From a virus (Duplodnaviria > Heunggongvirae > Uroviricota > Caudoviricetes): a stretch of 50,054 nucleotides of DNA. The stretch is taken from positions 1-50,054 of the IMG/VR virus record IMGVR_UViG_2563366820_000003. The stretch is one strand, 5' to 3'. Below are positions 12,001 through 17,681 of the stretch, one piece after another. The position numbers are program-made. Numbering within the stretch: the stretch's first letter is position 1; the number at the start of each line of letters is the position of its first letter.

Positions 12001-15000
12001 TTAACCATCAGGTACTACGTGAGATAGCAAAACAGGCAACACAGGGCGAATGGGTCGCATTTATTTCGACGGGTACTGGTACGTATGCGGTGCATACGCC
12101 CGGTGATAAACGATGTGAAGACGTTATCAAATGGCCCGGTTTTGACGGACAGAAAAACGCAGAGAACAACGCTCGTTATATCGCAGCTTTCAACCCTGCA
12201 GTAGTGCAGGCGCTGCTGGATGAGCGGGAAGCCCAAAACAAGCATATAGGAGAGTTGGAGGCTAATCTTGTGGCGCTGGCGGCGGAGAATGCAGAGGTGA
12301 AGGCGATATGTGATGACCGTCGCAGGTTTATCATGAATGTGGTGCAACTTGGGCATATCAAAGCGCCAGCAATGAAAACAAAATCGGGGCTTGAAACAAT
12401 TCGTCTTGCTATATCACCACAAAAGCCCACTCCGGCCACCGATGTTTTTCTGGCTGAAGTGCGGGCGTTGCGTTTAACGACCTTTGCGCGGCGTTTGTCA
12501 GGCACGCAAAAGTTGCAGGGCTGGATGATGTCGATACCGTAACGCTTAATGAAGCAACGGATGCGCTGCTGCATTGTGTGGAACAGCTTCGCGCTCCAGA
12601 ATAATTAAATTTAGTACTGTAAATAAAATTTAATCCTTAACCGGAGGGATTCCTGCAACCTCAATACATCAGGAGTCCGTCCGAAAGGGCGGTAATGAAA
12701 AATGACAGAATTAACCAAAGAGCAATTAATCGAAGAAGCCAAATTAAAAATAGCGATTGCGAAATGCCACCCCAATTCAGGGATGGCACGGGTAGAGGGC
12801 GAGTTATTCAAAATTGCACTGGCATCGCTGGAAGCAGAACCGATAGCGTGGGTATGCGGAGAAAACATAATCCTGTTTAATCCTGACACAGTTGAAGCAT
12901 ACGCAAAACGCGCGGAGATATCGCCTAAACCACTATATGCCGCGCCGCCAGTTCCTGTAATACAGGCTGATGTCGCGCAAGCAATTGAAAATCTCAAGCA
13001 GAAGTTAGTGGAATGCAATCGCTATAACTACTGCGCAGATGCAGTTAAAGGTGTTGAGGATGCCAGCCGCGTCTTTGCACTCCAAAATCAAAATATGTCA
13101 GCACCGATAACGCCGGAGGCCATTGAAAACGCAATTGAATACATCCGCAGTATCGCTTTTCACATCGATGAAGACGATTACCACGGCAAACATATTGCGT
13201 ATTTCATGCGACAAGCATTGGCCTGGCTGGAAGGGCATTCATGCAGCGATGACAGACAAGGTAAAGCCGACAATCAACCAGTACGCGGTAACCAGGCTGC
13301 CGAATTCAATAACGGTAATGAGTGGAACGGCAATCCTGATATTGATGACGCAATCATCATGCTCGACCGCATAGATACGCTGGAAAGTTGCGATGATGAC
13401 CGTATTGAAGCGGTTAAGGCCGTTTTGCGTGGACTGGCTGGCAACTCTCCGGTAACTCCGGATGGTTGGATAAGCTGTAGTGATGCTGTTCCTGCGGAAT
13501 ACTGCGATGTGATTCTTTGCGATGATCTCGGGAATGTATTCCCCGGTTCCTGGGATAAGGTTTTTTGCCCCACTCGTGGCGGGAATAAGATGGCTTTTGT
13601 GGACAAAGACGGCGTCGAAGTAGAGAGCTCAACTCACTGGATGCCGCTACCGGAACCATCGCAGGAGGTGAATCAATGAGCTGGCCTGAAGCATTCACAA
13701 CAGTAGGAATTGCAATGGCGGTGGCGCTGGTGGTGTATTCGATTTGCCGCTGGGGATAAAAACGATTTGCGGGAAAAGGATAGTTAAGTAGAATTGCTGC
13801 GGGTGCTTGAGGCTGTCTGCCTCGGGCATGCCACTGTAAGGCAGACAGAGAAAAGCCCCAGTTAACATTACGCGTCCGGCAAGACGCTTAACATTAATCT
13901 GAGGCCAATTTCATGCTTTGCACATGTAGGTTAGCCTCTTACGCGCCGGAAGGCAAGGAGATGTATGGGTCCACCACATATTGCAATTTTTGTTCTCTCT
14001 TAAAATATATTCCACGGGCGTCATTAGTGCGAGCGCCTTATGGGGCCTTTTGCTGTTATACAGTACCAGATATTCCCCCAGCTTCTGATTAAATAGCGCC
14101 AGATCTTCAAAGAGTAAAATCTCATTAAATTCAATAAACTGCTCTCTTAACGTCCGGTTAAAACGTTCACAGATAGCGTTCATTTTTGGCGTGTAGGGAT
14201 AGGTCCAGAGGTGTTTGATAGCGGCTTCCTGCAGCGTTTTGTTGAAGTTTCCCAGGAACTCTTTTCCGTTATCTGTGATTATCTGACTGATACCGACCGG
14301 GAACAGGCGGGCTGCACGGCTGAAGAAGTGATTGACGATATCACTGTTGAGCGACGGTACAGCCAGCGCCAGCGCGTAATTGCTGCATTCGTCGATCATG
14401 GTGATGACATAGCGACGCAGTTCGCCCATTCTGAGCTCAATGGCGTCCATCCCAATGAGCTCACCTGTCTTTACCGGGCGGTAGTGCTTTGGTCTGCGGG
14501 GTTTGGCAGACCGCTTTTTGACAAGCAGTGCCTTCCCCCGCGAGCCCAGACGCACAGGTATCATTCGCATTTTATCGTGTGCGGCAGCGATCATTCTGCC
14601 GATGGTGGAAACACTTGGACAGGCCAGATAGCGCTGTTCGCACCAGGGCTTCAGGCGAACAAAAATCTGCTCTTTACCGAGGTTCGGCAGCTCTGTCCGC
14701 AGCCGTCGAATCTCTTTCAGCACATCGGGATGCCAGTGCTTTTTTCGTCGCACCAGAGGTGCCTTACTGTGCGGGATTAGCCCCTCAGGTCCTCCCTTGT
14801 TCAGTAACTGACGCCACCAGTAAAGCGTGCGGCAGGACACGCCAAAGGCTTCAGAAGCTGCAGAAATACCGTGTTTATCCCAGAAGTGCAGAGCCTTCAT
14901 TCTCATTGTTGCTGTATCAGCCATCACTGAAAGCCTCAACGCATAATCGGCCGTTTGGTAGTACTTAGGATAGCCAACCATCAGATGCTGCATTTGCATA

Positions 15001-17681
15001 GTGCAATCTCCCCTTACTTATCCGGAGGTAATTGCAATATCTCTGTGAACTTACACAGGAGAAGCAGGCTATGAAGCAGCAAAAGGCGATGTTAATCGCC
15101 CTGATCGTCATCTGTTTAACCGTCATAGTGACGGCACTGGTAACGAGGAAAGACCTCTGCGAGGTACGAATCCGAACCGGCCAGACGGAGGTCGCTGTCT
15201 TCACAGCTTACGAACCTGAGGAGTAAGAGACCTGGCGGGGAGAAATCCCCGCCACCTCTGATGTGTCAGGTATCCTCAACGCACCCGCACTTAACCCGCT
15301 TCGGCGGGTTTTGTTTTTCATGAATAAGGGATTAATAATTTTAACTGAAATTATATTGCCTTGTTGTCTGAATGGTTAGTTAATTTTTCGATATTATTGT
15401 ATTTGTTGTATTTGTTGTATTTGTTGTATTTGTTGTATTTGTTGTATTTGTTTTTATTTTTGGCTTTATCGTTTGCGATTGCTTCGAAATAAAGATTAAT
15501 TAGAATTCATCCGTTTTGAGTAGCGCGCAGGGAGAAGATGGATGGACCCTGAAAAGGGGAGAGCTATTTATCTGGAAGGATTCTGAAGATGAAAATCGAA
15601 GAATTGCATGAATTGTTTAGTGAAAATGGCCTCTATGCTGTGCGCGTTGAGAATGGAACTATTGTCAGTCACTGCCGCATTAAATGTTTACAATCCCAGC
15701 AAAGGAAGAACGGTGCTGTGTTAATTTATTTTGTGGATGGACTTATGGTGGACGGTTTTATTTTACGTGAAGATGAATTTGTCACATCATTACAGGCTTT
15801 GAAAGAGATAGGACTTAAGGCTGGATTTTTTGCTTTTGAGACTGAGTGAATTCATCTACAATTCAGCACAGGGTTGACCCCCTGCTGAGTAACACCGTGC
15901 CACCGGAGAAAACCGATGGCACATATACAACTGGTCAAACAAACTTCTTCTGGTTTACTTCTCCCGGCGACGCCGGAGAGTTGCGATTTTCTGCATCAAA
16001 TAAAAATAGGCGAGTGGATACACGCTGACTTTAAGCGTGTTCGTAACTACGCATTCCACAAGCGTTTTTTCAAACTCCTGCAACTCGGATTCGATTACTG
16101 GACTCCGGTCGGTGGGGCGATCACGCCTCGCGAACGAACACTGGTGTCAGGTTTCGTTGATTACCTGTGTGACTCGGTAGGCAGGGAACATACGCCAGCC
16201 CTGAGCGAAGCCGCAGAGCAATATCTGAATACAGTTGCGACACGCAGAACCCAGGATACGGCATTACTCAAGTCATTTGACGCCTTCCGTGAATGGGTAA
16301 CCATTCAGGCCGGATTTTACACTGAGCATTTTTATCCGGACGGTAGCCGCGGGCGTCGGGCGAAATCCATCGCGTTTGCAAATATGGACGAAACCGAGTT
16401 TCAGCAGGTTTATAAATCTGTACTGAATGTGCTGTGGAACTGGATTCTGTTCCGTAAATTTTCCTCTCCGGAACAAGTCGAAAATGTGACTGCACAGCTG
16501 CTGGAGTTTGCGTGATGGCAGATTTACGTAAAGCGGCGCGGGGCCAGATGTGTCAGGTCAGAATTCCTGGGTACTGCAATCACAATCCCGAAACTTCCGT
16601 GCTGGCGCATTACAGACTGGCGGGGACGTGTGGAACAGCGACAAAGCCACACGATATGCAGGCTGCAATTGCCTGTAGCTCATGCCACGATTTAATCGAC
16701 GGGAGAGTAAAAACCAGCGATTACACCAAAGAAGAATTACGCCTGATGCATGCAGAAGGTGTTTTTCGCACACAAGAAATCTGGAGAAAGGAAGGTTATT
16801 TATGATTTACCCAACAAATACAGGAAAAAGCGGGGAACACCTTCGTCTCACCACGCTGGAAAGTGTCTGGATTCAGGGAAAACTGCGTATGTGGGGGCGC
16901 TGGTCGTATATTGGCGGCGGTAAGACGGGGAATATGTTTAACCAGTTGCTGGCATCCAAAAAATTGACGAAAACAGCCATCAATGAAGTTCTGCGCAGGA
17001 TGAAAAAAGCGGGGATTGATAAGACGGAACTGGAGGCATTTTTGCGGGAAATGCTCGACGGTAAGCAGAAAAGCTGGTTGTCTCATTGTACTGATGCCGA
17101 GGCGTTATGTATTGATCGGGTAATTAGCGAAGTGCTGGTCGAGTATCCGGGATTAATTAGCATCCTCCGACAACGATATGAAGGGCGGGGAATGAGCAAA
17201 CTGAAAATGGCAGAGCAGTTAAATGAAAATCATCCTGACTGGACATTAATTACCTGTCGACGTCGTATCGATCAATGGCTGATGATTGCTGAATTTATGC
17301 TTTATAAACCAATGTTCACGGCACAAAAAAAACTATTGCAAAGTGAGCAATAAACTGCTTCAATTCAGTTACGCTTCGCAAAGCTGTATCGCGAGGTTAA
17401 CCAGAAACGTGAACTTAAAAACCCGCCACTGGCGGGTTTTTTTATTCCTGAAGCCTGATTAAAAAATGCGCGATTAAATGGTCGTATAAAATATATTTTG
17501 TGTACATTTATGACTGTTTTTAAATTTATATAAAAAGTTGACAAAATAGAAATCTAAAAATAAATTTACAAAACTTGACGCTGCGATGTATTGCAGTTTT
17601 ATTATTTAAACGTATTATTTGCCGCAGTTCTTCAGGGGGGAGTAATTGCGATATATTCCTGTCTGAGGAAATAATGCCGAT

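Follow-up and report, generated by a model that had tools for sequence, protein, structure and literature searches.

A complete hok/sok locus split by an IS481-family insertion sequence at the hok Shine-Dalgarno sequence of a Rac/Qin-like lambdoid prophage

The DNA analyzed here is the whole 50,054-nucleotide stretch of the IMG/VR virus record IMGVR_UViG_2563366820_000003 (the window), in which a single hok/sok type I toxin-antitoxin locus, complete at the outset and belonging to a Rac/Qin-like lambdoid prophage, takes up positions 13801 to 15319. An Rfam match to the hok leader lies to the left of a transposase gene and the hok coding sequence (CDS) lies to its right, so the locus is split rather than truncated. 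It is a disrupted member of the hok/sok group and not a working module: 1,095 bp of an insertion sequence (IS) of the IS481 family, a relative of ISKpn28, separate the leader (to 13961) from the Shine-Dalgarno (SD) sequence and hok (from 15057). We consider it very probable, taking the reading as a whole, that a simple IS insertion has split a complete hok/sok locus and silenced hok, and that this site is a recurrent one for the IS clade. An IS-disrupted hok locus is ordinary in itself, as IS-inactivated hok loci have long been known. Modules of this kind stabilize plasmids and prophages, and an IS clade found repeatedly in the hok ribosome binding site would act as a natural device against addiction.

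To the left of the IS, the hok mRNA leader occupies 13801-13961 on the plus strand, comprises the 5' tac end, the hairpins, the mok start and the Sok target, and ends at a copy of AGGAGA. Rfam model RF01794, which is named 'sok' and represents the hok mRNA leader with its Sok target together with the sok gene, matches 13801-13967 (plus strand) over its full length (model positions 1-157), with 108.8 bits, a gathering score of 59 and an E-value of 8e-25. Ahead of it a manual hexamer match places a candidate hok promoter at 13767-13794 (plus strand), with a -35 TTGCGG (13767-13772), a 16-nt spacer and a -10 TAGAAT (13789-13794) that ends 6 nt before the leader start assigned by Rfam. The mok start codon is at 13913-13915 (plus strand), at +113 as compared to +116 in R1 (PMC9841398). 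The mok open reading frame (ORF, 13913-14092) is in frame with hok only after removal of the IS; as it stands in the window, the frame enters the IS and terminates at 14090-14092. On the minus strand the antisense sok gene and its candidate promoter span 13852-13956, with a predicted RNA running roughly from 13921 down to 13852. This promoter, identified by eye and placed by homology with what we take to be the R1 sok promoter, consists of a -35 TTGCCT (reverse complement of 13951-13956), a 17-nt spacer and a -10 TAACCT (reverse complement of 13928-13933), with the -35 just 5 bp from the IS end.

The GC-rich palindrome at 13813-13848 (plus strand; CTGTCTGCC...GGCAGACAG with an inner GGCATGCC) had been proposed to mark the IS junction. 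It is present as described, but the IS end is 113 bp away, and the palindrome is a conserved RNA hairpin, the first stem-loop of the hok leader. It is paired in the Rfam consensus, and an RNAalifold analysis of 14 hok leaders shows the 5' stem to be kept with compensatory changes (column pair 15/63 is AU in five, UA in five and GC in four).

To the right of the IS only the SD sequence, hok, the fold-back inhibition (fbi) element and a terminator remain. The sequence-only reading had correctly recognized a hok gene beside the transposase, and we find a 51-codon CDS (15071-15226, plus strand) that is intact, nucleotide-identical to K-12 hokD by BLAST, and matched by the Pfam HOK_GEF domain (PF01848) with 82.9 bits; the NCBIfam Hok subfamily model scores 48.5 bits, below its cut-off of 73. 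The hok start codon had been put about 12 bp from the IS, and although it is indeed close, the measured distance from 15056 is 14 bp; no intact hok or antisense control region fits into that gap. The fbi element CCTCAACGCACCC (15274-15286, plus strand) is complementary to the 5' end of the leader (GGGTGCTTGAGG, 13801-13812), and a terminator scan places the intrinsic terminator of the hok transcript at 15293-15319 (plus strand), with a 7-bp stem (15293-15310) followed by a T tract.

Removing the IS together with one AGGAGA copy in silico yields ...GGCAAGGAGAAGCAGGCTATGAAG..., with GGCAAGGAGAAGCAGG as the IS-free junction. This reconstructed empty site aligns without gaps to the uninterrupted hokD loci L005 and L006 of other prophages (GGCAAGGAGAAGCAGGCTATG), and 789 E. 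coli genomes have an uninterrupted locus that matches it with a coverage of 80% or more. The reconstructed 417-nt mRNA has a minimum free energy (MFE) of -178.2 kcal/mol (z = -7.1 relative to shuffles), and in the MFE fold of the IS-free mRNA the 5' end GGGUGCUUGAGG pairs with CCUCAACGCACCC (15274-15286), the tac/fbi closure between the 5' and 3' ends described for hok mRNA (PMC9841398). In these respects the locus resembles hok/sok (parB) of R1, with which it shares the leader architecture defined by Rfam, a mok start codon some 57 nt ahead of hok, the tac/fbi pairing of the mRNA ends and a sok gene on the antisense strand; it differs in being a prophage-borne hokD-type allele interrupted by an IS and with mok in frame with hok. 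This in-frame arrangement is, we presume, that of the chromosomal mokB and mokC. The hok gene had been described as an orphan, a view that does not hold, as the RF01794 match and the collinearity with uninterrupted loci show the leader, mok start, Sok target and sok, with the candidate promoter before them, to be intact across the IS. Its control region had also been thought disrupted, which is correct insofar as the IS separates it from hok, but the region itself is intact to the left of the IS. The annotation should thus be of a complete but IS-split hok/sok module instead of an orphan toxin gene.

The boundaries of the IS were determined by alignment of the window with four unrelated contexts, in which the element lies between sseA and timP, on an unrelated plasmid next to a gene for an SdiA-regulated-domain protein, between iroB and iss on a ColV-type plasmid, and between yegH and galF. 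The shared sequence runs from TGTATGGG (13962) to ...CTTACAC (15056), and the five contexts together define a 1,095-bp IS at 13962-15056, oriented on the minus strand and present as a single copy in the window. The element opens with TGTATGGGTCC... and closes with ...GTGAACTTACAC, an inner ATATTGCAATT motif being present at both ends, and the imperfect terminal inverted repeats that had been claimed are seen in the alignment of the two ends as a common TGTA start and a ATATTGCAA core. Flank alignment identifies direct copies of AGGAGA at 13956-13961 (the hok SD) and 15057-15062 (still an SD ahead of hok), and the copy between sseA and timP in E. coli NRZ14408 (L001), which differs from that of the window by one base, is flanked by AGCGAA on both sides. 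The target duplication is therefore 6 bp and perfect in both, and further 6-bp duplications at other IS loci are ATACTC, ATGCTC, AGCGTG and AGAGTG. The three best cases are explained equally well by a 5-bp duplication if the IS ends in an additional A; we prefer 6 bp because the 5-bp model requires a chance A as the sixth base of the right flank in all cases. L001 (IS at 2988-4082) is of interest in its own right, in that the IS lies 44 bp upstream of the ryfA/timP RNA (RF00126, 320 bits); the product of timP, like that of hok, is a small toxic membrane protein, and the orientation of the IS relative to the toxin gene is the same as at hok.

The closest named relative seen is ISKpn28, with 82% amino acid identity between the transposases and about 75% nucleotide identity. 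The thresholds usually applied by ISfinder for copies of the same IS are at least 95% amino acid or at least 90% nucleotide identity, and by that convention the sequences indicate that the IS of the window is distinct from ISKpn28. ISKpn28 is 1,100 bp long with inverted repeats ATATTGCAATT / AATTGCAATAT (PMC6101004), and it shares with the present element a length of about 1.1 kb, a single DDE transposase gene, the ATATTGCAATT repeat motif and an open-ended ORF ending in MWWTHT. It also sits in the SD of a plasmid hok with the same AGGAGA duplication and in the same orientation; it differs in its setting, ISKpn28 being an element of Klebsiella pneumoniae, whereas the hosts of the IS of the window are E. 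coli and E. albertii and not Klebsiella.

The transposase gene is on the minus strand, opposite to hok as the sequence-only reading had it, at 13911-14999 (stop codon 13911-13913), and would encode 362 amino acids from the ATG at 14999 or 337 from that at 14924. It looks intact: Pfam detects rve (43 bits), rve_3 (50.5 bits), HTH_28 and HTH_32, and the candidate catalytic residues D185, D243 and E278 lie in nearly invariant columns among 19 homologues. The NCBIfam IS481 model NF033577 scores 218.8 bits over profile positions 2-283 of 284, with a curated cut-off of 224, and the next-best family, IS3, reaches only 96.9 bits.

The transposase gene has no stop codon within the IS. Homologues down to 44% identity all end in ...C-x-M-W-W-T-H-T and then diverge completely, with total lengths of 324 to 558 amino acids, and MWWTHT is encoded by the final 18 nt of the IS, that is, by the terminal inverted repeat (reverse complement of TGTATGGGTCCACCACAT). 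As the homologues agree up to the IS end and not beyond it, these sequences argue that the stop codon is always supplied by the flanking DNA. Here the reading frame continues for 16 codons and a stop (13911-13961) into the hok leader, and the transposase ORF as called takes in these 16 codons. The open-ended gene takes its stop from the hok leader, and probably a terminator from Sok too.

The IS of the window is not alone at this position. Two other E. coli prophages (L007 and L008) have the IS at the identical position of hok with the same duplication, and the IS copies of the three are 97.6-99.3% identical while the adjoining leaders are only 86-89% identical to that of the window. A scan for the transposase in one genome per species returned fragmentary E. 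albertii contigs only, with no flanks recovered, and the flanks were taken instead from viral and metagenome contigs, where exact-match scans for the IS left end gave 160 loci. An nhmmer profile of hok leaders (one seed being the R1 leader, with the result cross-checked with Rfam) matches 12 of the 59 distinct left-flank contexts (47 of 152 copies), most of the matches ending at the last profile position, and two or three further contexts are relE-hok junctions by eye. On the right-hand side, seven of 25 flank clusters start with an SD and a Hok ORF. With Rfam, RF01794 adjoins the IS in five of the other loci (L017, L057, L097, L114 and L128).

The hok alleles at the site are GGCAAGGAGA/AGCAGGCTATG, GCGCAAGGAGA, TTGCAAGGAGG/AGTAAACCATG, GTTGACAGGAGA/AGAAGGCCATG and TCAACACTG/GAGGCGAGGAATG, and judged by their sequences are too diverged to be accounted for by one event. 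ISKpn28 proper is found as GGCAAGGAGA/IS/AGGAGAAGAAGGCCATG in an R1-like plasmid hok/sok with RF01794 adjoining it at 103.5 bits, and this composite is present in 1,355 plasmid records, relative to 2,070 records with ISKpn28-like DNA. A more distant IS relative, 58% identical, adjoins a hok-like leader at GGCA/ATAAAA, where RF01794 scores 54.6 bits, below its gathering score. The occurrence of 'ISKpn28 upstream of hokG' has been recorded descriptively for IncHI5 plasmids (PMC6339943), and we found no statement of a preference of this IS clade for the hok SD in the open-access literature; searches there for IS481 with hok, and for the IS481 family with E. albertii, returned nothing relevant.

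Across contexts the insertion site has a weak motif, YCA^A followed by five bases; of the 59 contexts, 44 have C at -8, 40 have A at -7 and 40 have A at -6. The window alone contains 422 [GT]CAA[GT] sites, and the motif by itself therefore cannot explain why a quarter of the contexts are hok. These data point to the hok SD as a recurrent, orientation-specific insertion hot spot for this IS clade. Either the transposase recognizes more than the motif, perhaps the neighbouring leader hairpin as well, or the insertions are sorted by selection, which could stem from toxin loss that is harmless or beneficial on highly mobile replicons. The reuse of a single position in a single orientation favours a targeting component without proving it. 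We advance as a tentative proposal, with somewhat less than even confidence, that the ISKpn28 clade is 'hok-homing', with a preference for oriented insertion at GCA^AGGAG(A/G), the junction of the last leader hairpin and the SD, in plasmids and prophages alike. If so, this would be an unusually precise choice of target for the IS481 family, and homing would disarm an addiction module, give the element a ride on highly mobile replicons, and provide its open-ended transposase gene with a stop from the hok leader and probably with the Sok terminator.

Some other sequence contexts are of note. A second GCAAGGAG octamer in the window (42019-42026) has no IS. In three viral contigs (L030, L038 and L042) the IS adjoins a different conserved hairpin context, ...GGTTAGCGCCTCTCCGGAAAAGGAGCA/AGTGCT, which none of the Rfam families matches at its gathering score and which might be the leader of another small toxin. 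Among L146, L172, L069, L133 and K-12 L173, relE-spacer-hok junctions of the K-12 Qin type also have the IS, at GTTGACAGGAGA/IS/AGGAGA, and in some of the copies 16 bp of the left flank are missing (...GACACTTCTGCT/IS), suggestive of IS-adjacent deletions.

The strongest competing explanation for the recurrence is that a transposase without site preference made one ancient insertion, which then spread by homologous recombination or co-divergence and was retained by survivorship. Lambdoid phages and plasmids are mosaic, about 35 bp beside the site are conserved among hokD-type alleles, many of the plasmid copies are clonal, and disarming the toxin is harmless; IS150 moreover accumulates beside hok and ldr loci under selection (PMC5419217). 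We nonetheless regard this as unlikely. The IS copies are far more alike than their adjoining leaders (97.6-99.3% as against 86-89%), insertion is at one and the same nucleotide in hok types whose divergence precludes recombination (GGCAAGGAGA, TTGCAAGGAGG, GTTGACAGGAGA and TCAACACTG) and for IS lineages only 82% and 58% identical, and the non-hok sites have the same YCA^A motif. Selection alone would also be expected to scatter insertions over the locus. The IS150 insertions next to hok/sok and ldr loci, which recur in experimental evolution (PMC5419217), are alike in that an IS has repeatedly and independently entered the regulatory region of a type I toxin gene, but they are at scattered intergenic positions and involve another IS family, whereas the insertions described here share a single nucleotide position and orientation.

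The insertion has a likely consequence for the toxin. It struck the hok SD, duplicating AGGAGA, and hok would have lost both its own promoter and its coupling to mok. In R1, translation of mok up to the hok SD is mandatory for synthesis of Hok (PMC9841398), and because promoter and mok-coupled translation are cut off by the IS, hok is likely silent and the addiction module disarmed. Expression of sok would continue, since the hexamers of its candidate promoter are outside the IS, 5-34 bp from its left end.

Several points weigh against the reading as a whole. The silencing of hok and the continued synthesis of Sok are both inferred. A scan of 13600-15600 for sigma-70-like promoters found no site and missed the expected hok and sok promoters as well; it is thus uninformative about an outward promoter in the IS right end, neither supporting nor excluding one. 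The hok CDS is undamaged here, as it is in 13 of the 15 other hok genes linked to the IS, which fits a recent insertion but also some retained use. Finally, the IS481 score of the transposase falls 5 bits below the curated NCBIfam cut-off.

A second alternative starts from these intact genes and holds that the IS rewires hok, through an outward promoter in its right end or read-through from the hok promoter, so that the toxin is expressible under new control. The duplicated SD, hok CDS, fbi element and terminator all remain, with the hok ATG 14 bp from the IS end and an intact Hok ORF in those 13 of 15 IS-linked loci, and IS481-family elements create outward promoters in Bordetella, which lends this idea support. 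However, no promoter-like site is apparent in the IS right end either by eye or in the promoter scan (with the limitation noted above), and Hok made without mok coupling and outside the control of Sok would be lethal (PMC9841398), yet 55 E. coli genomes and 1,355 plasmid records show the arrangement to be stably maintained. We therefore consider rewiring quite improbable, and retain silencing of hok as the preferred interpretation.

The IS is widespread: of 5,426 complete E. coli genomes, 1,175 contain its core, at a total of 1,621 chromosomal and plasmid places, and the same 1,095-bp unit with the same ends is found at sseA-timP, on plasmids, at iroB-iss and at yegH-galF. RefSeq places an 'IS481 family transposase' and hokD side by side in 55 E. 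coli genomes. One could suppose instead that the ORF is not mobile, being an integrase-core gene that has been domesticated or a moron fixed in the prophage next to an orphan hok. In favour of this, RefSeq often uses no more specific name than 'integrase core domain-containing protein', the score with the IS481 model is slightly under the cut-off and the median is one copy per E. coli genome. It is nevertheless exceedingly improbable, in view of the recurrence of the unit and its ends in these unrelated chromosomal and plasmid contexts, a copy number of up to 38 per genome, perfect 6-bp duplications around several copies and an empty site in hundreds of genomes. The original identification of a mobile IS481-family element is upheld by the same evidence of defined ends, target duplications and copies in multiple contexts.

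The copy at iroB-iss on the ColV-type plasmid (L003) and those at 18 metagenome loci are frameshifted, 1,085 bp long and about 92% identical to the IS of the window; they lack a target duplication (GCGTTTGCTG/IS/TGTGTATCAT) and are the commonest metagenome context. This looks like an old, decayed IS fixed in ColV plasmids.

The origin of the prophage itself was also considered. Among complete E. coli genomes it has no close relative, the best match covering 52% at about 90% identity, and a search of the same genomes for this prophage without the IS, by which the insertion could be dated, likewise gave no close relative. In an E. albertii draft genome the IS is collapsed into short contigs, and the host may therefore be E. 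albertii.

The parallel drawn earlier with IS-inactivated hok loci is sound, in that here as in K-12 an IS parts hok from its upstream control region. Such loci in E. coli K-12 (Pedersen & Gerdes 1999, as cited in PMC2654758) resemble that of the window in having hok/sok disabled by an IS with the hok CDS intact. The locus of the window differs in being in a prophage, in carrying an IS481/ISKpn28-like element, in having the insertion precisely in the hok SD, and in that the AGGAGA-duplicating site is reused across many alleles. The elements in K-12 are presumably IS150 and IS186.

Comparison with the Qin prophage of K-12 bears on the suggestion that the IS occupies the position of relBE. The K-12 locus consists of relB-relE, a spacer of about 70 bp and hokD (relF), and its homology with the window starts exactly at AGGAGA, continues at 98% through the CDS, fbi element and terminator, and resumes in a rem-like gene downstream. 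The Hok CDS is nucleotide-identical, and the fbi element, terminator, downstream rem-like gene and general neighbourhood are alike; however, K-12 has relB-relE and the 70-bp spacer ahead of the SD and lacks the leader and sok, whereas the window has a complete leader and sok displaced by the IS. By this alignment the locus of the window is a more complete version of the Qin hokD locus and not a relBE replacement, and the suggestion is replaced by that of a simple insertion into a contiguous hok/sok, K-12 Qin being a different arrangement. The possibility that the K-12 relE-hokD junction is itself an IS-mediated scar was rejected on two grounds. The DNA upstream of it still resembles a degenerate R1-type leader (GCTTTGCG...), and there are relE-spacer-AGGAGA/IS/AGGAGA-hok loci with perfect duplications, which indicate ordinary insertion into a pre-existing junction.

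A few features near the locus are recorded here. Upstream, a 27-codon ORF (13676-13759) encodes a hydrophobic peptide (MSWPEAFTTVGIAMAVALVVYSICRWG) and overlaps the stop of a DUF551 gene; it ends 8 bp before the candidate hok -35 (13767-13772), and the 20 bases of its 3' end that could be aligned, including the stop, recur unchanged ahead of the uninterrupted hok loci L005 and L006. Further downstream is a 223-codon ORF (16682-17353), for which matching phage and E. coli records give the annotation antitermination protein Q (an annotation of those records only), followed closely by tRNA-Thr(TGT) and tRNA-Gly(TCC) at 17676-17829 and 18480-18561. ARAGORN also predicts an odd 'tRNA-Tyr' with anticodon ATA, which lies outside the range scanned with Rfam (12000-18000). 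Between the hok terminator and the rem-like ORF (15589-15849), a perfect 9-bp tandem repeat, TTGTATTTG, is present in 6.2 copies at 15397-15452.

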